Positions 3,392-64,000 of a DNA stretch of 64,000 bases are shown here, one piece after another. The stretch spans positions 123,002-187,001 of the forward strand of contig CAYODR010000001.1 of the NCBI GenBank assembly GCA_964402895.1. The letters are read 5' to 3'. Position 1 is the stretch's first letter, and every line of letters starts with the position of its first letter. The position numbers and the translations under genes were made by a program. This DNA comes from an uncultured Candidatus Saccharibacteria bacterium. Its GTDB lineage: Bacteria > Patescibacteriota > Minisyncoccia > Phycocordibacterales > UBA9973. The notes under the pieces are model-generated. The model worked only from the letters and a program-made list of their open reading frames with translations, was not told the DNA's origin and searched no databases.

Positions 3392-4585
3392 TTAATCAAT
3401 AGGTATAAATATAACAAAAACAGTACCGATACCTTCGCTAGAGATAAAATCAATACTGCCATTTAGATATTTTTCTACAATATTTTTAGCAGAATATAAA
3501 CCAATACCAGTGCCTGAATTTTTAAGTGTTTGAAATGGTAAAAAAACTTTTTCTTTAAATTCATTTTTAATCCCACAGCCAGTATCTACTATTTTAAATA
3601 GTAAAAACCCAGAGACCTCAGTACAAGATATTGAAATATTTTTATCTAAAATTCTGTTTGCTAAAACTGCATCAATTGAATTTGAAATTAAAGTTGTTAA
3701 AACTTGTTCAAATAAAATCTCATTACAAAACACTCTAGTATCTGCGTGTATATCTACTTTCAAGCTAATATTATTATTTTTTATTTGAAGCTCAAATAAA
3801 TCTAAAACATTATTCACAATTTCTTGTAAATAAACATCCTTCTTATCTAAAGATAAATTTGTTCGGTCTTTAAGACTAAGCATTAAATTGCTCATCTTTT
3901 TTGCAACAAATATTGCTCTCTCAGTAGATCTTTTAGCAATATCTCTAAATTCTTGATTATCTTCATTTTTTATTCCATCTATAGATAGTGCAATGGTATT
4001 GAGTGGATTCATTAACTCATGAAAAACTCCCGCAGAAATATTTTCAAAATCAGCAACCCTATTTTCATTTAAAAAATGATTATTAACATTTTCTCTATGT
4101 TCTTTATTAAAAATTCTAACGATATAAATAAAGGCTGAGGTTAGAAATATAAAACTAAATAGGGGAATGATTTTTATGTCTCTAAAATTTAAAAGTAAAT
4201 AAACCATAAAAAATAAAATGATTGGGGGATAAATGGTTTTTAATTCTTTTAAGATTATGAAAAATGCAAAACCTAAAAATATACATAGCAAGAAAAATAA
4301 AAAATGATTTATCAAATTTATAGCATATAAAGAAAAGACAAATACCATTAAACTGTTTAATAATATACTTTCTAAAATAGAATACCAAAATCTTTTTAAG
4401 AAAAATAAATACAAAATAGAAGATAAAAAGATTATTGACCCAGACACTATAAAAATTAGTACTTTTAAAAAAGATTCATTAACATACAGAGAAGAGAAGA
4501 ACTTAAAATTAAAAAACGCAACAAAAATAATATAAATAGTAGAGGTAATCGCTATAAAATTTACATTTCTTTTAGTATTCTTCAT
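3392..4585 (-). CDS. Sensor histidine kinase (multi-transmembrane N-terminus, HisKA plus HATPase_c)
   Basis: H-box FHELMNPLNTIAL and a C-terminal G-box GTGIGLYSAKNIVEKY. Located upstream of an OmpR-type regulator. Confidence 0.8.
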   Translation of the reverse strand: MKNTKRNVNFIAITSTIYIIFVAFFNFKFFSSLYVNESFLKVLIFIVSGSIIFLSSILYLFFLKRFWYSILESILLNSLMVFVFSLYAINLINHFLFFLLCIFLGFAFFIILKELKTIYPPIILFFMVYLLLNFRDIKIIPLFSFIFLTSAFIYIVRIFNKEHRENVNNHFLNENRVADFENISAGVFHELMNPLNTIALSIDGIKNEDNQEFRDIAKRSTERAIFVAKKMSNLMLSLKDRTNLSLDKKDVYLQEIVNNVLDLFELQIKNNNISLKVDIHADTRVFCNEILFEQVLTTLISNSIDAVLANRILDKNISISCTEVSGFLLFKIVDTGCGIKNEFKEKVFLPFQTLKNSGTGIGLYSAKNIVEKYLNGSIDFISSEGIGTVFVIFIPID

Positions 4586-13814: not shown

Positions 13815-14558
13815 CTAAGAAGCGCAACGAACATAATGATCAGCATCAACAACCCTACCTATATTACCACTACCAAAACTTTGACGATAATTACGAGAAG
13901 TTGATGTATAAGCTGGAGTAGATGACCAATAATAATTAACAGTAAAACCATACTGTGTGACATCACTACTGCTATAATCATAAATAGCTTTGAATACTTC
14001 AACTGGCGGAAGTCTTTTTCCTACATTAGCACAAATATTATTTGCATTGGCCCAATTAGCAGAACCACTATCTGCAGGGTCAAGTGTCATAACACTTTGG
14101 GTATCAACTGCATAATGAGTGTCATTGTAATATACTGCAACACCGAAATTTTTATCTTGTAATCCATCTGCTGCTGCAAAGTGTGAGGATCCAGCTGGAA
14201 CATCACTCGTCCTCACCACACATCTAACCCTATCTGCTCCTGCGATACTAGTTAAAGCATCTATCATAGGCTGTATTGAAGAATGTGCTGTGACTCCTGT
14301 TGTATTGTATGTACATAAACCTACAAAAGTACCGTTATCATTGTGATACATGATAGCTTGAGTTTGTAAGTTCTTTAGATTTGATTTAATCGCCGCTACT
14401 CTGCCTTTGGTCCTGACGCTGTTTAGACTTGCAATTACCACCGTTGCTAAGATACCTATAATAGCTATCACTACTAATAGTTCTATGAGAGTGAAGGCTT
14501 TTCTATAAGTGGTATACCCCCCTATTAGACTTTTTGAAAGGTTGGTTAATTTTTTCAT
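13815..14558 (-). CDS. Type IV pilin-like protein with a C-terminal CLec/FGE-like domain (pilin-CLec paralog 1). Candidate DGR-type target architecture.
   Basis: Prepilin leader MKKLTNLSKSLIGGYTTYRKA|[17 protein letters not shown]. The C-terminus contains NWANANNICANVGKRLPPVEVFKAIYDY...WSSTP...YVRCAS, resembling the FGE/CLec fold and the ...GFRCA ending of DGR variable regions. Paralogous to 30450..31253 and 63268..64000. Confidence 0.75.
   Translation of the reverse strand: MKKLTNLSKSLIGGYTTYRKAFTLIELLVVIAIIGILATVVIASLNSVRTKGRVAAIKSNLKNLQTQAIMYHNDNGTFVGLCTYNTTGVTAHSSIQPMIDALTSIAGADRVRCVVRTSDVPAGSSHFAAADGLQDKNFGVAVYYNDTHYAVDTQSVMTLDPADSGSANWANANNICANVGKRLPPVEVFKAIYDYSSSDVTQYGFTVNYYWSSTPAYTSTSRNYRQSFGSGNIGRVVDADHYVRCAS
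14517..14522 (-). repeat. Poly-G tract (6 nt, coding strand) in the Gly-Gly-Tyr codons of this pilin
   Basis: The plus strand shows cccccc; the gene is in frame with 6 G. Confidence 0.6.
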
Positions 14559-14586
14559 AAATATATTATATCATATACAACACTTC

Positions 14587-14688
14587 AAACAACATAGCTT
14601 TTTGCCGTCGGTGTATTTCTCCGGCTTTTGAATCACCTGACTCTCGGACGAGTCGTCCTGCGAGACACGGCAAAAAGCTATGTTGTTT
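14587..14688. repeat. Hairpin element A1 (type II; 21-bp perfect inverted arms aaacaacatagctttttgccg, ~60-nt loop; core in inverted orientation)
   Basis: Arms 14587-14607 and 14668-14688 are exact reverse complements of each other. The loop is the reverse complement of the loop of element B2 at 49415..49511. Confidence 0.6.
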
Positions 14689-14724
14689 TCGTTTTTGTGT
14701 TTGATATATTTAAAAATGAAAAAA

Positions 14725-14823
14725 CAAATATGTCTTTCTGGTGGGACTTAGCTACGGCTGACTGAGCCGAGCGTAGCAATTTCTCTGCTGAGAAATATGC
14801 GTGCCCCCAGAAAGATATATTTG
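14725..14823. repeat. Hairpin element A2 (type I; arms caaatatgtctttctggtggg / cccccagaaagatatatttg; loop contains GGCTGACTGAGCCGAGCGTAGC plus an inner 7-bp hairpin)
   Basis: Read directly from the sequence. Homologous to B1 (49279..49376) and C2 (57935..58039). Confidence 0.6.
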
Positions 14824-14892
14824 TTTTGGAATGGAGACTTATCCATGTCTAAAAATAATAATAGGATTTTAGAGGTTTTTAGTTTTAAAATA

Positions 14893-26038: not shown

Positions 26039-26626
26039 TTAAGGATTCTGATGACAACCTGCTGCTGTAGCGCTATATGACCCATCGTATACTGCGCCAG
26101 ATGAACCTATACAAAACCAATCTCCAGATACTGAAGCAGCACTATCTTTTTGTTTAACATTAACAGAAAATCTATTTTTAACATCGCCACAACTCGTGCC
26201 ACAACCTAAGTACATTTTATTTGCAGCATTATCATCATTCGCATTTGTTGGAAGTTTAGATGTAATACTATTACAGATTTCTATTGCCCTATCTCTGTTT
26301 AGTGCAGTTATGAGTATTCTACTAGAACAAGTATACGCTCCACTACCACTTTGAGAATCTCCCATAAACCATGAACGAGTAACAAAAGTACTAAAATCCC
26401 CCGTCTCCGCATAATGCTCCATTGCTAAATTAAAGAGTTGTCTAGCTTCAGACTTAATGGCTGCAGTTTTAGCTTTTTCTCTTGCTCCATTTAGACTAGC
26501 TATTACTACTGTTGCTAGTATTCCGATGATTGCGATGACGACTAGGAGTTCAATGAGAGTGAAGGCTCTACTTTTTAGTGTATACCCCCCCTTAAAATTC
26601 TTTAGTTGGTTTGATAGGTTTTTCAT
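26039..26626 (-). CDS. Type IV pilin-like protein (Cys-rich C-terminus); paralog of 28711..29307
   Basis: Leader [21 protein letters not shown]|[19 protein letters not shown], with a shared internal [24 protein letters not shown]. Confidence 0.75.
26595..26601 (-). repeat. Poly-G tract (7 nt) at the GGY codons of this pilin
   Basis: The plus strand shows ccccccc; the gene is in frame. Confidence 0.6.
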
Positions 26627-28710: not shown

Positions 28711-29307
28711 TTATGGATTTTGAGTACAACCTTGTCTAGAAAGATTATAAACTCCTTCACTAACAACACCTGAAGTTCCAACGCAAAACCAATTTCCTGA
28801 AGTTCCTTCACTATCTTTCAGCTTTATATTTATTCCAAACCTATTTACTTTATCTGTACAACCACCAGTACATCCTAAATTAAGTTTATTTCTTGCTGAA
28901 TTGTCAGACCTATTAGTTGGTAATTTATTTACCATACTATTACATATCTCTATTGCTTTCTGTCTGTTGAAAGTATTTATGTTAAATGCAGATGAACAAG
29001 TACTTTCACTGGTAGAACTTGTTTGACCATCAGCTCTAACCCAACTATTAGGCATGTTAGATAAAAATGTAGTAAAATCCCCTGTCTCTGCATAATGTTC
29101 CATAGCAAGATTAAAGAGTTGTCTGGCTTCAGATTTTATAACTGCAGTTTTAGCTTTGTCTCTTGCGCTGTTTAGTGTTGCTATTACAACCGCAGCAAGA
29201 ATTCCTATGATTGCGATAACAACAAGTAGTTCGATTAGAGTGAAGGCTTTTCTATAAGAGGTATACCCCCCCATTTGTGTTTTAGAGATTGCCTGCAAAT
29301 CTTTCAT
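28711..29307 (-). CDS. Type IV pilin-like protein (Cys-rich C-terminus)
   Basis: Leader [21 protein letters not shown]|[19 protein letters not shown]. Paralog of 26039..26626. Confidence 0.75.
29266..29272 (-). repeat. Poly-G tract (7 nt) at the GGY codons of this pilin
   Basis: The plus strand shows ccccccc; the gene is in frame. Confidence 0.6.
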
Positions 29308-29338: not shown

Positions 29339-30418
29339 TTAAAAAATATCCATCTTTTTTAATAAATAAAAACTATTAGCATGTATACAATGACCTTTAT
29401 AAGAAGTCAGTCTAGACAAATTTTTTACCTTTATCAAACCATCTCTTTTATCTATTATTTCATCATAAAAAACCTTTTTAAATCTCCGAACCACTTTTCT
29501 CCGAACTAAAGTATGTGTTGGCTTAATGAAATACCCTAGAAAATCAAGTCCATGTTCTACTTTATGAATAAATACCTTATCCATACAAAGCTTAAGCAAA
29601 AGTTCATTATTTAAAAATTCTTCTATCTCATTTATAGTAGAGACTAACCTATCCCTATCTTCATTAAGAATAACAAAGTCATCTACATATCTCACGTACC
29701 CTTTGAAACCCAATACCTTTTCTATAAAATAATCCATTTTGTGTAAATATACATTTGCAAAAAACTAACTAGTGATATTCCCAATGGGAAGTCCTCTGGT
29801 ACTATCCCCCGACAACAAAGACTTCTGTATCGGGATTAATTTTTTAGTCCACTTTTTTCCTTTAAAAATAAAGTCTTGAGCTGGATCATGAAAAATTATT
29901 ATTTTAGTTATCCATAAAACTTCTTTTTTCCATAACTCACTTTTATCTTGTAAAAATATTTCAGATTGCATTATTTTCCATAAAGTTTCTTTATGTATAG
30001 ATCTAAAAAAACTTTTAATATCCATTTTTAAATAAAATAATTTTTGACGATTTAATCCACCACGAGTAATAAAAAATCGCGCCCTTTTAAAAGCGCGATG
30101 CGTACCCTTGCCGACCCTATTCGCAAAAGAACTATCTAAAAAATCTTTTTCAAAAATAGATTCTATTTCATTACATAACAAATGTTGCACTACTCTATCT
30201 CTAAAGTCGCTAGCAAAAACTTCTCTTGGTGATGGACTTTTGATTACAAAACATATATGCCTAGATATTTTATATTCTCCACTTTTTAAATCCTCTAAAA
30301 GGTTTAAAAGATTTTGTTCTCTATTCATTTCAAATCTCAAGGCATTAGTTGTATTCTTTTTATTTTTAATACACTGTTTATAAGCCCTATAAAGATTATC
30401 CATTGTAAATATAGTCAT
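29339..30418 (-). CDS. Diversity-generating-retroelement (DGR)-type reverse transcriptase. The gene is full length but interrupted by one in-frame TAG (29765..29767) at the conserved Gln of the IGNxxSQ motif.
   Basis: Strong similarity to Bordetella bRT: NLYRAYKQC..., ...FRDRVVQHLLCNEIESIFE..., GKGTHRAFKRA, YLKMDIKSFFRSIHKE (motifs 1-2), RGLPIGNITS*FFANVYL (bRT has GLPIGNLTSQLFANVY), YVDDFVIL (motif 5), and GLDFLGYFIKPTH (motif 7). The two ORF fragments 29765..30418 and 29339..29737 are in the same frame. Confidence 0.8.
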
Positions 30419-30449
30419 AATAAATATATTAGATCAAGCAAAAAGAATA

Positions 30450-31253
30450 CTAGGCGGCACAACGAACGTGGGTATAATTACCAGTAGGGTTCCTAACCAC
30501 ATTACCAAGATTGAAAGCCTGTATATAAGCGATACTGGACTGGGTAGCAGAAGGGGTAGATGACCACCAACCGTTAGCAAAAAACCCATACTGAGTTACA
30601 TCAGTACTACTATAGTCATATATGGCTTTAAAGACTTCGATTGGGGGAAGTCTCTTTCCTGCTGCAGCACATCTATTATTTGCTTCAGCCCAGTTTGTTT
30701 CTGCACCATTGTTTGCAGAATCAAGTGTCATTACGCTTTGAGCATCAACAGCGTAGTGGTTTCCTTTGAACCAGACTGCTACACCAAAATTTTTATCTTG
30801 AAGTCCATCTGCTGCAACAAAGTGTGTAGCTGAAGTACTAGGAACATTTGAAGTACGAACAACACAGCGTACATTCTCATCTCCTGCAATATTCTTAAGA
30901 GCATCTATCATTGGTTCAACTGATGAATGATAACCTGTTTGAATAGTAGATGGTGCTACCCATGTACAAAGTCCAGCAAAAGTCCCATTGTCTGCATGGT
31001 ACATTATTGCCTGAGTCTGAAAATTCTTTAGATTGGATTTGATAGCTGCAATACGTCCTTTGTCTCTGGCTGAGTTTAGTGATGCGAGGACTACTCCAGC
31101 GAGTATACCTATGATTGCGATGACTACGAGAAGTTCGATTAGAGTAAAAGCTTTATTAAAAGAATTATTTCTAAACTTTTTTAACGAAAATAGGGTCTTT
31201 CTATGATTGCCCCCCCTATTTTCGCCTTTGGCAAAATGGTTAATTTTTATCAT
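30450..31253 (-). CDS. Type IV pilin-like protein with a C-terminal CLec/FGE-like domain (pilin-CLec paralog 2). It directly abuts the DGR reverse transcriptase and is a candidate DGR target.
   Basis: Long leader MIKINHFAKGENRGGNHRKTLFSLKKFRNNSFNKA|[19 protein letters not shown] (the ORF-track extension beyond 31253 is probably spurious; a TATAAT sits 8 nt upstream of this ATG). C-terminus NWAEANNRCAAAGKRLPPIEVFKAIYDY...WWSSTP...NLGNVVRNPTGNYTHVRCAA. Confidence 0.75.
   Translation of the reverse strand: MIKINHFAKGENRGGNHRKTLFSLKKFRNNSFNKAFTLIELLVVIAIIGILAGVVLASLNSARDKGRIAAIKSNLKNFQTQAIMYHADNGTFAGLCTWVAPSTIQTGYHSSVEPMIDALKNIAGDENVRCVVRTSNVPSTSATHFVAADGLQDKNFGVAVWFKGNHYAVDAQSVMTLDSANNGAETNWAEANNRCAAAGKRLPPIEVFKAIYDYSSTDVTQYGFFANGWWSSTPSATQSSIAYIQAFNLGNVVRNPTGNYTHVRCAA
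31210..31216 (-). repeat. Poly-G tract (7 nt) at the Arg-Gly-Gly codons of this pilin
   Basis: The plus strand shows ccccccc; the gene is in frame. Confidence 0.55.
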
Positions 31254-31425
31254 GACAATATTATAACATCTACAACTATAAGAACAAATATTTTTATTAG
31301 TACTATGTGGATAAAATATTAAAATAAAGTACGCTAACATAATACATTTTTAAAAAATTTACAAAATAAATTATAGAAATAAAAGTCTTGTTTTTCTATC
31401 TTCAATAAAGTATATTATAGCCAAT

Positions 31426-31497
31426 GGCCCTATCGTCTAACGGTTAGGACATCGCCTTCTCAAGGCGGTAATCGGGGTTCGATTCCCCGTAGGGTCA
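31426..31497 (+). tRNA. tRNA-Glu (anticodon CTC)
   Basis: Cloverleaf: acceptor ggcccta/tagggtc, anticodon loop ttCTCaa, T-arm ggggTTCGATTcccc. CCA is not encoded. Confidence 0.8.
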
Positions 31498-31728: not shown

Positions 31729-32505
31729 TTAGAGCGGATAGCACAAGGTTATCATGGCGACAGAATTTATTCGCCCCTCAATAACCGATATAGAGGTAGT
31801 GCAGATTAATTTTTTATCTTCATCATACACATTACCAGTACACATTGGATTTTCTTTTACTAAATATTCTTTTTTAGAAAAGAAATCAAATAGAACTTTC
31901 TGGATATCATACTCGCTAGTTTCTTTTAAAACCTCGAACTGTAAATTCTCAACCCTAAAGTTATTACTTAATCTCCCAGTTCTAAGACTCTGCAATTCGC
32001 GAGCAACATCGTCATGAAGTAGATATTCCTTGTACAATGTTTTCACTTCTAAATCGGATTGTATCAGAATGTAGTTGAATGGACTATCTGTTCGAACAAG
32101 AAGAGCGTCCCTGTTTTTTCTGAATGCATTATTGATATTGATAACATTTATATTTTCATCATCAGGATGCACTCCATACAACACATTTGCTATATCAACA
32201 TAATTTTTAAATACCCAACCCGAATCCTCCTGGAGAGGTGTTACCTTATTCTTCTCTTCGAGGATTTTATGTATCCCAGCTGAGTAAATAAAAAGTATTT
32301 TCTGACACCAATCAAAATAATCATTTTTACCACGCATTGATGCGAGAATAAGGAGATTGTGGAGAAGGATCCAAGATTCGGGTTCCCAATTATTTTGATT
32401 ATGATTAGAAAACCCCCCGAAAAAAGTTAGAATTTCATGAGAAGTAAGAGATGCACTGTGACGTATCTCCTCCTCAGTTTTTAATGCTACTGGTTTTACT
32501 TCCAT
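31729..32505 (-). CDS. Hypothetical protein
   Basis: 258-aa ORF with no recognised motif. Confidence 0.4.
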   Translation of the reverse strand: MEVKPVALKTEEEIRHSASLTSHEILTFFGGFSNHNQNNWEPESWILLHNLLILASMRGKNDYFDWCQKILFIYSAGIHKILEEKNKVTPLQEDSGWVFKNYVDIANVLYGVHPDDENINVININNAFRKNRDALLVRTDSPFNYILIQSDLEVKTLYKEYLLHDDVARELQSLRTGRLSNNFRVENLQFEVLKETSEYDIQKVLFDFFSKKEYLVKENPMCTGNVYDEDKKLICTTSISVIEGRINSVAMITLCYPL

Positions 32506-32664
32506 TATTTTTGATTTTTAAGTTACAAAATTTATTTTTTGGCATTATATCATATATTTAGATTTTGTAAATTATTCCGTAGGTGCTCTAGAAGGGTCGA
32601 AATGATATACTAAAAACATTAGAAAAGTCTTATGGGACAAGGATCGAAAAATCTTTTTCAAAAA

Positions 32665-32718: not shown

Positions 32719-33702
32719 TTACCAGGATATACGATTATTCCATTCAGATAATAATGTTGACACTTGTTTCATATTTCCCGATAAACCCCTTAAGGATTGT
32801 GATTGCGACCAAAAAAGAGTTGGTGTCTGATCATGATATTGTCCGTGATAATTCTCGGCAATAGGCTGGTTTATTTTTGAAATAGCAACCGGTTCGAAGC
32901 CGCTATATTTATCTGCTTTAACAACCAATTCTTCTCCTTCTGTAGTTAGAATATAAAAGGAGTTTGGTTCAAGAGTTGGCATAAACCTTCTAAACGTTGC
33001 AATCTTTTTTCCATCAGGACTAAGTGCCCATTTAAAATGGTGTAATTTTTCCTTGGTATTAGAGTATTCAAATACCCTATAGAGCTGATCAGAACATATC
33101 GCTAACCACCATCTCCCCTCTTTAAAAGGAAAAGGGCCTAATATTTCAACGATATAAAATCCATTTTCAGATTCAGGGGTATCATCGTAAGAAAAGAAAG
33201 GTGTTGGAAGTGGGTCTATGCCACGAACTTTCTCATCACGCAAACTATTACGGTCCGTATATTCACCTATTTTGTGTATATACATTTGTTTACGATTACT
33301 ACTAAATCCAATACTATTACACGAAAAAACAAAATGTTTACTAAATGCCCCATCGCTAGTATGAAGTTCAGTGATCAAATCAAATCTCTCTTTTCCACCA
33401 GAAGAAAATAATACATATTTCCTATAGTCGTAATCTTCAGTCAAAACAACAAAATCATCACAAGTTGTTTTTAATATAATTACCTTTCCATGAAAAAAAT
33501 GCTTATAACCTACAAACAATGTCTTCTTATTGCGCGGCATTAGTTCTTTATTATCCAAAAGAACCATAAATGGTTTTGGTAATGGAACAATAACTTTATT
33601 ACAATTAAAACTAAAATTCTCAAACGCTAGTGTTTTTATAGCTGGGACAGGAATTTCTTCTGACATAACAGGCTGTATTCTGATGTTGAATTTTTCTTTC
33701 AT
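32719..33702 (-). CDS. Hypothetical protein
   Basis: 327-aa ORF with no recognised motif. Confidence 0.4.
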   Translation of the reverse strand: MKEKFNIRIQPVMSEEIPVPAIKTLAFENFSFNCNKVIVPLPKPFMVLLDNKELMPRNKKTLFVGYKHFFHGKVIILKTTCDDFVVLTEDYDYRKYVLFSSGGKERFDLITELHTSDGAFSKHFVFSCNSIGFSSNRKQMYIHKIGEYTDRNSLRDEKVRGIDPLPTPFFSYDDTPESENGFYIVEILGPFPFKEGRWWLAICSDQLYRVFEYSNTKEKLHHFKWALSPDGKKIATFRRFMPTLEPNSFYILTTEGEELVVKADKYSGFEPVAISKINQPIAENYHGQYHDQTPTLFWSQSQSLRGLSGNMKQVSTLLSEWNNRISW

Positions 33703-33776
33703 ATCAAATTTTTAAAGTTACAAAATATTTTTATCACTATATCACACATAAAAAATTTGTAAATACTAAATATTAT

Positions 33777-48484: not shown

Positions 48485-49184
48485 TTATTTACCACAGGCA
48501 AATAAAAGGGTATCCGTCTTCAAAAAATTAGATATTGCTCCATTATAACCTACATTTTCCATATGAATATAAAATCTCCTATCTAAATTTGAAAATAACT
48601 CTGTTGAAGTACCGTGCACTGCAGCTAAAAGTCCAAAAACAACATCTCCTTGATAACTCATGTGGAGAGCTTTTAATTGTTCCAAACTTGTCATCCTTGC
48701 ACCTTCATTTAAGCAGGTATTCATTGAGTTTATATAATTTTGTGTACCCACACTATGAGTCCCTAATATCTCAACCACCCCCCTATTGTCCACTGAGAAA
48801 TTCCTATCATTAAAATTCGCTGATACTCCAAAATTTAGATTTTTCTGCATAGTATAGCCATCGGGAATGATATAGCATCCCGACCTCACACCTCCAGAAT
48901 TTAATGAGTTCATCATATCTAGTATTTTAGCATCCTCACAAAGCCCTCCATAAGTCTTATTTGTATCAAAATACAATTCAGCTTGAAGACCGATATTTTT
49001 TAAACTTGATTTAATAGCCGCTATTCTACCTTTAGTGCGAGCAGAATTAAGTGATGCAATGACTACTCCTGCAAGGATACCTATAATAGCTATCACTACT
49101 AATAGTTCTATGAGAGTGAAGGCTTTTCTATAAGTGGTATACCCCCCCTATTTGTCTTTTAGAGTCCGCCTTTAATTTTTTCAT
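48485..49184 (-). pseudogene. Type IV pilin-like gene whose N-terminus is out of frame because its poly-G tract is 7 nt where 6 nt would be in frame (phase-OFF copy or homopolymer sequencing error)
   Basis: With 6 G the upstream ATG at 49184 reads [40 protein letters not shown]... continuous with ORF 48485..49096. As sequenced, that frame hits TAG after 18 codons. Confidence 0.6.
49142..49148 (-). repeat. Poly-G tract (7 nt) causing the frameshift in this pilin
   Basis: The plus strand shows a-ccccccc-t. Confidence 0.6.
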
Positions 49185-57203: not shown

Positions 57204-57701
57204 TTAAAAATTACACCTAGGATTAGATACATACCAACCTAAATCTTCTGGATATACTCCTGTTTTACAATAACCACTATTTTCAAGATATACTCTTATA
57301 GCAAACTTGTCTTTATCTATAACACTTGAAATCATTTTATAAGCTTCATTGCCACTTATATATTTAGGATCTTTTGGAATTTCAGATATATAATTAGGAA
57401 CGAGATCTGTTTCATAAAAACTCATATCATAATATAAATCACCAGAACCAGGGCTTTTTTGTGCTGGATATCTACCATGATCCATATAATACATATTCAT
57501 AGCCATTTGTACTTGTTTGATATCTGAAATCCTCTTTGCATCTCTCGCCCTACTTCTCGCACTATTTAAATTTGCAATCACAACTGTAGCTAATATTCCG
57601 ATAATTGCAATGACTACTAGGAGCTCAATGAGAGTGAAGGCTCTACTTTTTAGTGTATATCCCCCCCCTACACTTTTTGAAAGGTTGGTTAATTTTTTCA
57701 T
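57204..57701 (-). CDS. Type IV pilin-like protein (the start is taken at MKKLTNLSKS; the ORF-track extension to 57737 covers the promoter)
   Basis: Leader [21 protein letters not shown]|[19 protein letters not shown], with a TATAAT 8 nt upstream of the ATG. Confidence 0.75.
   Translation of the reverse strand: MKKLTNLSKSVGGGYTLKSRAFTLIELLVVIAIIGILATVVIANLNSARSRARDAKRISDIKQVQMAMNMYYMDHGRYPAQKSPGSGDLYYDMSFYETDLVPNYISEIPKDPKYISGNEAYKMISSVIDKDKFAIRVYLENSGYCKTGVYPEDLGWYVSNPRCNF
57661..57668 (-). repeat. Poly-G tract (8 nt) encoding Gly-Gly-Gly in this pilin
   Basis: The plus strand shows cccccccc; the gene is in frame with 8 G. Confidence 0.6.
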
Positions 57702-57725: not shown

Positions 57726-57840
57726 AGTCCCAAACAATACATCCTATGAAGAGACTTAGCTTCGGCTGACTGAGCCGAGCACAGGAAAAAATCAGCAGAT
57801 TTTTATCCGTGTCTCTTCATAGGATGTATTGTTTGGGACT
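57726..57840. repeat. Hairpin element C1 (type II; 30-bp perfect arms; loop with GGCTGACTGAGCCGAG and inner hairpin aaaaatc-agca-gattttt)
   Basis: The arms atgtcccaaacaatacatcctatgaagagac and gtctcttcataggatgtattgtttgggacat are exact reverse complements. The pilin -35 box (TTGTTT) lies in the proximal arm. Confidence 0.6.
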
Positions 57841-57934
57841 TTTATCTTTACTAACGGAAAATAAAGCTTTTTGTATTTATTAAATTAAAACCGAAGAAAC
57901 TACATTGCTTATTTTTAGACTTGCGGAAAACGAG

Positions 57935-58039
57935 AAACCAAATATGTCCTTCTGGGGGACTTGCGCAGGCTGACTGAGCCGAGCATAGCGATTTTTCCTC
58001 AGAAAAATACGCGTGCCCCCAGAAGGACATATTTGGTTT
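57935..58039. repeat. Hairpin element C2 (type I; arms ccaaatatgtccttctggggg / cccccagaaggacatatttgg; core GGCTGACTGAGCCGAGCATAGC)
   Basis: Read directly from the sequence; homologous to A2 and B1. Confidence 0.6.
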
Positions 58040-63267: not shown

Positions 63268-64000
63268 CTAGGCGGCACAGCGGACATATCGATTGGTGGG
63301 TGTCCCTATATTAATTACACCACTACCAAAGGTAAGATGATAAGCTTCAAAACCAGATGTACTACTAAGGGTAGCAGACCAATAAGTAGTAGTTGTTCCA
63401 ATAGTAAATCCTAAATTACCGCCCTCAGCTCCATAATCATTGATAGCTTTAAGTATTTCAATTGAAACAAGTCTTTTGCCAACATTAGAACATCTTAAAA
63501 TTGCGGTGGCATAATTAGTAATACCTCCGTTGTTTCCAGTATCAAGTGTCATTACCCCCTGAGCATCAACTGCGTAATGTCTTTCATTAAAATAAACTGC
63601 TACACCAAAGTTCTTGGTCTCAAGAGAGTCTGCTGCAAAAAAATTATCGATTAGTGGTACATCACTTGTCCTCACCACGCACCTGACCCTATCTGCTCCT
63701 GCAATACTTACGAGCGCATCTATCATAGGCTGTATTGAAGAATGTGCTGATACGCCTGTTTTATTGTATGTACAAAGTCCTGCAAAAGTACCATTGTCTG
63801 CGTGGTACATGATGGCTTGAGTTTGAAGATTCTTTAGATTGGACTTTATTGCTGCTACTCTGCCACTAGTGCGAGCTGAGTTTAAAGATGCGATGATGAC
63901 TCCTGCGAGTATTCCGATGATTGCAATAACTACTAGGAGTTCAATCAGAGTGAAGGCGTAACTTTTAGTGGTATACCCCCCCATTTGCCTTTTAGAGTCC
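63268..64000 (-). CDS. Type IV pilin-like protein with a C-terminal CLec/FGE-like domain (pilin-CLec paralog 3). It is 5'-partial: the start codon lies beyond the window end.
   Basis: In-frame upstream sequence ...DSKRQMGGYTTKSYA|[20 protein letters not shown]-terminus ...NVGKRLVSIEILKAINDY...YWSATLSS...GTPTNRYVRCAA. Confidence 0.75.
   Translation of the reverse strand, partial: DSKRQMGGYTTKSYAFTLIELLVVIAIIGILAGVIIASLNSARTSGRVAAIKSNLKNLQTQAIMYHADNGTFAGLCTYNKTGVSAHSSIQPMIDALVSIAGADRVRCVVRTSDVPLIDNFFAADSLETKNFGVAVYFNERHYAVDAQGVMTLDTGNNGGITNYATAILRCSNVGKRLVSIEILKAINDYGAEGGNLGFTIGTTTTYWSATLSSTSGFEAYHLTFGSGVINIGTPTNRYVRCAA
63936..63942 (-). repeat. Poly-G tract (7 nt) at the GGY codons of this pilin
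   Basis: The plus strand shows ccccccc; the gene is in frame. Confidence 0.6.

Follow-up and report, generated by a model that had tools for sequence, protein, structure and literature searches.

A prepilin gene beside an amber-interrupted reverse transcriptase gene in a Patescibacteria contig: probable remains of a diversity-generating retroelement

The stretch of DNA considered here (the window) is 64 kb of a 236,134-bp NCBI contig (CAYODR010000001.1, assembly GCA_964402895.1) from an uncultured Candidatus Saccharibacteria bacterium of the Patescibacteriota; its GC content of ~33% is that of a low-GC, small genome. On its minus strand, a gene for a reverse transcriptase (RT) of the type found in diversity-generating retroelements (DGRs) lies just downstream of a gene for a type IV prepilin with a C-terminal C-type lectin-like (CLec) domain (Table 1). 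The RT gene is interrupted by one in-frame amber codon, and the window holds neither a template repeat (TR) to pair with the variable region (VR) of the prepilin nor the accessory gene avd. Comparison with related loci suggests that this arrangement is probably what is left of a cassette of a known kind.

The reverse transcriptase and its prepilin neighbor

The RT frame comprises 359 codons with one internal stop, in the context GLPIGNITS-stop-FFANVY. With glutamine restored at the stop, the product matches Pfam RVT_1 (E = 3e-15), and the NCBIfam models for group II intron, retron, and Drt RTs all remain below threshold. Pfam and NCBIfam hold no dedicated hidden Markov model (HMM) for DGR RTs, and assignment to the DGR clade is by motif 4 and by the cassettes in which homologs are found. 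Motif 4 follows the signature [LIV]GxxxSQ, with the stop in place of the Gln, and the closest homologs, 59–64% identical, sit in verified TR/VR cassettes. A protein search returned thousands of RT homologs, mainly from metagenome-assembled genomes (MAGs) of Paceibacteria and Patescibacteria. For comparison, loci of relatives were fetched (L numbers), 80 of them from GTDB genomes. The window RT is 57–74% identical to intact RTs, several of which are within verified DGR cassettes. An earlier note on this DNA, made from the sequence alone, had proposed that the RT is of DGR type with an amber codon at the Gln of IGNxxSQ, and both proposals hold.

The Gln replaced by the amber codon is invariant in 28 of 28 aligned relatives. 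Its codon among relatives is CAA in 44 cases and CAG in 36. The RT is free of in-frame stops in all 88 fetched loci. The earlier note had left open that the TAG is a sequencing error. A second assembly, Logan contig L157 (run SRR16797981), agrees with the window without a difference over 417 aligned nt of the RT gene, the TAG included, and its downstream genes are identical as well; an assembler-specific consensus error is therefore excluded. Recoding of TAG is ruled out by stop codon usage, as the earlier note had also argued: the 39 long open reading frames (ORFs) in the window end in TAA (27), TAG (11, GAPDH and pilins among them), or TGA (1). The window has three tRNAs, the only matches of an Rfam search, and a CUA anticodon, which would mark a suppressor, is found in none of them. 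With an in-frame TAG in two assemblies and TAG a normal stop, the locus has no intact translatable RT gene. The scarcity of TGA looks like compositional bias and not recoding, as code 11 gives intact conserved genes.

Apart from the amber codon, the window RT has a single departure (V59I) among 110 highly conserved columns, compared with 0–7 departures in intact relatives. An RT that is otherwise intact points to a young lesion, and decay of the gene appears to be recent. Compared with L001, the window RT has a ratio of nonsynonymous to synonymous substitution rates (dN/dS) of ~0.09, with dS saturated. We also observed that a contig with a canonical target-avd-TR-RT cassette (L039, JAPLYQ010000146.1) ends at position 4386, inside the Gln codon of IGNLTSQ that corresponds to the TAG of the window; this is probably a coincidence.

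The gene upstream of the RT encodes a protein with an N-terminal class III signal, a cleavage/methylation motif ([GA]FTLIE), and a hydrophobic helix, as expected of a type IV prepilin. It matches N_methyl in Pfam (E = 5e-8) and scores above the cut-off of TIGR02532 (E = 1.4e-7). Its match to Lcl_C (PF07603; E = 5e-6) reaches 27.2 bits and so misses the gathering threshold of 34.9, whereas many homologs of the pilin have a precomputed PF07603 match. An AlphaFold2 model, calculated with 68 homologs as input (mean predicted local distance difference test score 87.9), shows a long N-terminal helix at residues 38–89 and two domains, a globular one of the pilin and one at the C terminus. Among solved structures compared with Foldseek, the best match to this C-terminal domain is that of Legionella Lcl (8q4e_A; E = 1.9e-4, root mean square deviation of 2.5 Å over 105 columns), followed by Bd2740 and many C-type lectin-like domains. 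The PF07603 matches of the homologs and the matching fold mark the pilin C terminus as a divergent member of the Lcl_C/DUF1566 family.

A VR at the C terminus of a domain of CLec (or Ig) fold is what a DGR target has, and the sub-threshold Lcl_C match, the fold matches, and VR-like variation among homologs all agree with this. The close homologs P0125–P0128 vary at positions that are interleaved with an invariant scaffold, WWSSTP..AY..F..GNV.R..VRCAA. The window contains two paralogs of the pilin, P0123 and P0137, that are 68% and 60% identical to it. The 3′ end of the P0137 gene has GCCGCCTAGTATTC in common with that of the RT-adjacent pilin gene and is divergent after it. Thus, the type IV prepilin identity that the earlier note had given to these three genes is supported by N_methyl and by the paralog identities, and its reading of the pilin C terminus as a CLec-like domain with a VR-like ending agrees with the HMM and AlphaFold results.

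Searches for a TR and for avd were carried out in the 64 kb of the window. No TR was found there by direct repeats, by self-BLAST ranked by adenine bias, or by an ungapped scan against the 3′ ends of the three CLec pilin genes that tolerated unlimited mismatches at template adenines and up to four others per 60 nt. Nor does any paralog in the window differ from the 3′ end of the RT-adjacent pilin gene only at the adenines of the latter, and no pair of sequences in the window has the mismatches at TR adenines that identify TR and VR. An exact-pattern scan with the VR 3′ end over a collection of genomes, of which the source genome is not one, gave no match either. The accessory gene is likewise missing from the window: tblastn with the Avd of L005 gave no match, a profile of 75 Avd ORFs taken from 72 fetched loci, and positive in those loci, gave a best match of E = 0.11, and neither avd nor an HRDC-type gene lies beside the RT. 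In this respect, the earlier note, which had reported neither TR nor avd in the window, was correct. The only adenine-biased pair in the window consists of 58-nt stretches at 32515–32572 and 33710–33764 that are 76% identical, with mismatches biased to adenine or thymine. They precede two neighboring minus-strand genes (31729..32505 and 32719..33702) whose function is unknown. Both stretches are intergenic, which rules them out as a TR/VR pair.

Canonical cassettes of relatives and the pilin-RT junction

RT relatives at 57–64% identity occupy canonical cassettes in the order target with VR, avd, TR, ~35–50 nt, and RT. In L005 (GCA_964663815.1; RT 59% identical to that of the window), a prepilin-Lcl_C target is followed by bAvd, a 166-nt TR, and the RT, and 100% of the mismatches in the aligned TR/VR pair are at TR adenines. 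L007 (RT 64% identical) has a VR, avd, and a TR abutting the RT; the TAG of the TR that is equivalent to the stop codon is followed by TCTTCTTTTTGCTTGATCTAACATATTCACT and then by the ATG of the RT. L006 (RT 67% identical) has an AAC-rich TR directly upstream of its RT. Most of the 80 further GTDB loci with sufficient flanking sequence have a TR/VR pair in which 75–100% of mismatches are at TR adenines. The TR ends 33–57 nt before the RT ATG in 15 of 27 loci with a TR/VR pair, and the distance from VR end to TR start is ~200–770 nt in the 27 loci and ~550–770 nt in those 15. Overall, relatives have their TR no more than ~0.5 kb away from the RT gene, on its downstream side in a few loci but mostly on its upstream side, and the 3′ ends of VR and TR share an identical direct-repeat stretch of 23–60 nt. 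At least four targets (L005, L013, L014, and L018) carry the prepilin motif FTLIELLVV.

The 31-nt spacer between the pilin stop codon and the RT start in the window is of the kind that separates TR from RT in these cassettes. By a manual count, L001 and L008 have its first 28 nt unchanged before the start codon of their RT, and the TR-to-RT spacer of L007 agrees with it at 27 of 31 nt; the RT-upstream sequence of L006 also matches. In contrast, the VR flanks of L007, L158, and L159 start with CATTCTTT and then diverge, and the window spacer is unlike them. The pilin 3′ end therefore occupies the position of a TR. Of the putative 3′ boundary elements of the VR, the conserved end GTTCGTTGTGCCGCCTAG is present, but where L158, L159, and L007 have a VR-type flank (CATTCTTT..; a palindrome in L158), the window has the TR-type spacer. 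No long ORF ends directly before the RT in any of ~85 relatives, so the arrangement in the window is singular and derived.

The earlier note had given the distance between target stop and RT start as ~30 nt, which is close to the 31 nt measured, and had called the DGR atypical. The latter description does not stand: the relatives are found in canonical cassettes, and the short gap between target and RT would appear to be the TR-to-RT spacer left behind after loss of avd and TR instead of a new architecture. A conserved TR-less variant, in which L001 and L008 would have the same junction as the window, was considered and rejected, as L006 and L007 show this junction to be the normal one between TR and RT. 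Most likely, the TR/VR repeat is simply where the L001 and L008 contigs break at k = 31. In several runs, Logan contigs start at nearly the same point of the TR/VR 3′ end, 55 nt upstream of the RT in L001–L004 and 54 nt in L008; a branch of the k = 31 graph is the most likely reason for this common start, with population heterogeneity as the alternative. A scan of metagenomes with the spacer motif gave 68 matches, of which one is adjacent to an RT (L148, of the L007 lineage) and the rest are chance matches.

Table 1. Features of the locus and related genes in the window
Feature	Coordinates	Strand	Basis
DGR-clade RT, pseudogene through one nonsense codon	29339..30418	minus	RVT_1 match; homologs in verified DGR cassettes
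In-frame TAG replacing the invariant motif 4 Gln (IGNxxSQ)	29765..29767	minus	Translation, alignment, Logan contig L157
31-nt spacer of TR-to-RT type, TATTCTTTTTGCTTGATCTAATATATTTATT; putative scar of VR/TR collapse	30419..30449	minus	Identity to RT-upstream sequence of relatives
Prepilin with C-terminal Lcl_C/DUF1566 C-type lectin-like domain; probable former DGR target	30450..31340 (NCBI, P0244, 296 aa) or 30450..31253 (267 aa from ATG)	minus	Pfam, AlphaFold2, exact-sequence look-up
Probable former VR, last 43 codons and stop, FANGWWSSTPSATQSSIAYIQAFNLGNVVRNPTGNYTHVRCAA followed by the stop	30450..30581	minus	Aligns with VRs and TRs of L005 and L007
Further prepilin gene, downstream of RT; product of 198 aa that lacks an Lcl_C domain	28711..29307	minus	Pfam N_methyl; absent together with RT from L158
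Glyceraldehyde-3-phosphate dehydrogenase (GAPDH), downstream flank marker common to L158	27636..28673	minus	ORF list, L158 alignment
tRNA-Glu(CUC), upstream flank marker common to L158	31426..31498	plus	ARAGORN, Rfam
Prepilin-CLec paralog P0123, 68% identical, no RT alongside	13815..14558	minus	Pfam, protein comparison
Prepilin-CLec paralog P0137, 60% identical, 5′ end beyond window	63268..64000	minus	Protein comparison

Decay in related strains and interpretation of the locus

Logan contig L158, from another sample, represents a strain in which the RT is missing. It carries the same pilin gene (~97.5% identical), which is near-identical to that of the window outside a mosaic N-terminal block and differs by 3 nt in the VR. 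The gene is flanked by the same tRNA-Glu and GAPDH genes, with neither the RT nor the second pilin between them. Nucleotides 1–245 of L158 are 97.6% identical to window positions 31453..31210, and the GAPDH genes are 90.5% identical, with 330 residues identical position by position between proteins of 344 and 345 residues. After the pilin stop, L158 continues with a VR-type flank (TAGCATTCTTTATAAAGAAT / CATTCTTTATAAAGAAT, a palindrome), ~50 nt, and the GAPDH promoter. The window thus combines a VR like that of L158 with a TR flank like that of L001 and L008, which would place the crossover within the last 18–21 nt common to VR and TR (GTTCGTTGTGCCGCCTAG). The mosaic block itself covers the leader and N-terminal helix (window 31100..31230 versus L158 230..330); it is ~80% identical, has a 39-nt indel, and forms a 5′ recombination mosaic.

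Other relatives have lost other parts. L159, whose pilin is 81% identical, has a VR, a flank starting with CATTCTTT, and, at the usual distance, an avd gene that is reduced to its first 13 codons (VSKYSELSIYNNL, matching MSLYSELPIYNNL of L007 at 10 of 13 positions); the sequence that follows is unrelated and contains no TR or RT. The closest RT found, P0245 from a sister MAG (85% identical), has 174 residues, and in it motif 2 (YLKMDIKSF) is joined to the C-terminal tail, such that residues ~138–317 (~180 residues; motifs 3–7, including IGNxxSQ and YVDD) are missing. The 106,003-bp NCBI contig that encodes P0245 also has the prepilin-CLec paralogs P0131, P0132, and P0135. In L015, from a different MAG (CAZLXA010000001.1, ~3800–4001), the N-terminal half of avd abuts RT residue 7, and no TR is detectable within the 9-kb locus. 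If the amber codon of the window is included, closely related elements carry four or five different lesions, and decay thus appears to be recurrent in this clade.

Diversification of the pilins also seems to have been recent. On the same 236-kb contig, beyond the window, P0126 is identical to the RT-adjacent pilin over its central ~185 residues (~68–253 of the window protein). Its VR has ~16 differences, which are interleaved with the scaffold described above for P0125–P0128. Neither VR can have templated the other, as there are differing codons without adenine (Phe TTT in the window versus Ala), and the idea that either pilin gene served as TR for the other was rejected on these grounds; it therefore looks as if a common AAY-rich TR gave rise to both. 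P0126 is itself a mosaic, with a leader that differs from that of the RT-adjacent pilin and resembles that of P0123. This mosaic suggests a recent duplication or gene conversion among pilin genes together with variation of the DGR type.

Taken together, we consider it probable that the locus is a recently inactivated, formerly canonical prepilin-DUF1566 DGR of the Patescibacteria/Paceibacteria. In the ancestral order, a prepilin-CLec target with a C-terminal VR would have been followed by a short flank, avd, the TR, a spacer of ~30–45 nt, and the RT. The matching 3′ ends of VR and TR could then have recombined or slipped, with a deletion that began after the VR, took its flank, avd, and all of the TR that varies, and fused the intact VR to the TR-to-RT spacer. 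Deprived of Avd and of an invariant template distinct from the VR, the RT would no longer be able to diversify the pilin. The stop codon in place of the invariant motif 4 Gln would have disabled the RT in addition, and the pilin would persist as an ordinary "frozen" lectin-tipped pilin. We infer the mechanism of the deletion, the order of events, and the lack of a trans-acting TR or avd elsewhere in the genome.

Several points weigh against this interpretation. A stretch of 18–21 nt is short for RecA-type recombination, and slippage or illegitimate recombination therefore has to be invoked. The search for TR and avd was confined to 64 kb of the 236-kb contig, itself one of several in the genome; in light of the recent diversification that P0126 shows, the genome may still have a functional TR and avd, and perhaps another RT, at a different site. 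Finally, the pilin-RT junction is known from a single MAG assembly. L157 starts inside the RT gene, short of the junction, and the full pilin and the N-terminal fragment of the RT are not present in the Logan assembly of the source population. An assembler could thus have jumped from the VR to the sequence downstream of the TR.

If it did, the cassette would still be complete in the genome, from the pilin with its VR through avd and TR to the RT, and an avd-TR loop of ~0.7–0.9 kb would have been dropped when the assembler collapsed the VR/TR repeat. The identical direct repeats at the 3′ ends of VR and TR in relatives are an error-prone structure, the common break point of L001–L004 and L008 indicates that this region fragments assemblies, and no second assembly spans 30419..30449. 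Such an artefact is nonetheless improbable in our view. The amber codon is independent of the junction and confirmed by a second assembly, and two unrelated defects in one cassette are a better fit to decay than to an assembly error combined with a genuine mutation. Real and different losses have also occurred at the same or orthologous loci (no RT in L158, an avd stub in L159, and the internal deletion of P0245). A separate piece with avd or TR was not found, in a search that excluded short contigs of the source genome. It is less probable still, and in our estimation quite unlikely, that TR, avd, and possibly a second RT act in trans to diversify the pilin and its paralogs, with the amber codon as a minority or recent allele or one that is read through at a low level. 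The VRs of P0126 and of the window do look like copies of a common TR, the RT is undegenerated aside from the amber codon, and DGR cassettes without avd are discussed by Wu et al. (PMC5758913). However, no relative has an in-frame stop in its RT, TAG is a standard stop with no suppressor tRNA in the window, the amber codon is the assembled allele in two assemblies, and relatives keep the TR close to the RT. The native downstream flank of the VR has also been lost; for Bordetella, passages in PMC3240598 and PMC12875486 describe an inverted repeat downstream of the IMH (initiation of mutagenic homing) site that promotes homing. Moreover, the VR is near-identical in L158 and the window despite 10% divergence of GAPDH, with no sign of ongoing diversification.

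The position of the pilin 3′ end raises one more possibility, that of a TR-less design in which the pilin gene templates itself. The pilin 3′ end lies exactly where relatives have their TR, 31 nt ahead of the RT start codon. The two genes would be cotranscribed, such that a pilin-RT transcript could be copied into paralogs or back into the pilin gene. We regard this as very improbable. No paralog in the window differs from the pilin only at its adenines, and the differences in P0126 include adenine-free codons. L158 has nearly the same VR (3 nt different) with no RT beside it, the arrangement occurs once among ~85 relatives, and the RT has a stop codon. Adenines would also be steadily lost from such a template, which would make the process self-limiting. 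There is almost no support for a pilin 3′ end that doubles as template, or for the amber codon as a regulated switch. On the preferred reading of the locus as an inactivated canonical DGR, a broader and more tentative idea is that recombination between VR and TR 3′ ends is a recurrent natural "off switch" for DGRs. In a single step, avd and TR would be excised, one variant of the pilin tip would be frozen in frame, and the RT would be left to decay, with the cassette repeatedly lost, and perhaps regained, between Paceibacteria strains. We see this as possible but on balance doubtful.

Relation to known systems and further prepilin genes

The locus most resembles the DUF1566/Lcl_C (CLec2-type) DGRs of Patescibacteria, members of the candidate phyla radiation (CPR), such as L005, L007, L013, L014, and L018. 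It shares with them the RT family (57–64% identity), the prepilin N terminus with an Lcl_C-fold C terminus that ends in ..VRC[AV][ARH], the sequence of the TR-to-RT spacer, and the order of target and then RT on one strand. Unlike these working systems, it is degenerate, with no avd, no separate TR, a VR joined to the spacer, and an amber codon in the RT. With the prototype, the DGR of Bordetella phage BPP-1 (mtd-avd-TR-brt), it shares a variable C terminus of CLec fold and the IGNxxSQ motif, and its relatives share adenine-specific TR-to-VR copying and the Avd accessory protein. The window differs from BPP-1 in having a cellular host and not a phage, a type IV pilin-like target and not a tail fiber, no TR or avd, and a broken RT. 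The DUF1566/Lcl_C fold is also that of the variable domain in the Legionella pneumophila LdtA DGR and of the Lcl domain (PDB 8q4e). In the window, this domain is fused to a prepilin helix, whereas LdtA is a lipoprotein and Lcl a collagen-like adhesin, and identity is only ~16%.

The earlier note had seen a DGR acting on a pilin-tip lectin domain as a notable surface-variation system. Passages in PMC6642488 (citing Paul et al. 2017), PMC5758913, and PMC11661182 place DUF1566 first in frequency among the Pfam domains of DGR targets and report putative pilin structures in CPR targets, and prepilin/DUF1566 proteins appear as a class of DGR target in parts of PMC6642488 (citing Paul et al. 2017) and of PMC5758913 (Wu et al. 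2018, category "d"). A DGR that acts on a pilin-tip lectin therefore belongs to a known class, of which L005, L013, L014, and L018 are canonical examples, and the reading of the locus as a notable new system is not supported. The missing TR and avd and the short gap would constitute a deletion scar in a known type of Patescibacteria DGR and not a new mechanism. As the case that would undo its proposal, the earlier note had named a decayed orphan RT, with no TR anywhere in the genome and a CLec assignment that fails; the RT is essentially such a decayed orphan, although the CLec assignment holds.

Degenerate or orphan DGR parts occur in other MAGs and contigs (L015, L158, L159, and P0245), and these are, like the window, partial cassettes that result from deletions. 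In the window, unlike in the others, the deletion ends inside the VR/TR repeat, and the target gene is in frame and apparently intact. We found no description of this specific VR/TR-repeat scar in the literature searched. As an illustration of the death of a DGR, the locus is of some, if modest, value, with a precise breakpoint and alternative states of decay in sister strains. It would also indicate that the lectin-tipped pilins of these episymbiotic bacteria were under diversification until recently. Annotation pipelines should take into account that, where an orphan DGR RT lies beside a CLec gene, either the cassette or the assembly may have collapsed.

The RT-adjacent pilin is one of seven prepilin genes in the 64 kb that have a common N-terminal helix region (14371–14522, 26439–26590, 29120–29271, 31024–31175, 48996–49147, 57514–57665, and 63830–63981), a large repertoire for a small, low-GC genome; three of the seven have a CLec domain. 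Upstream of two pilin genes, we observed a repeat of ~115 nt (GGCTGACTGAGCCGAGC...) at 14713–14827 and 57927–58039 (83% identical), with a further copy at 57764–57835. It has no match in Rfam and could be a common 5′ leader or a small RNA. An inverted repeat of ~59 nt with 80% identity (14550–14608 and 14667–14724) lies directly upstream of the pilin gene at 13815..14558.

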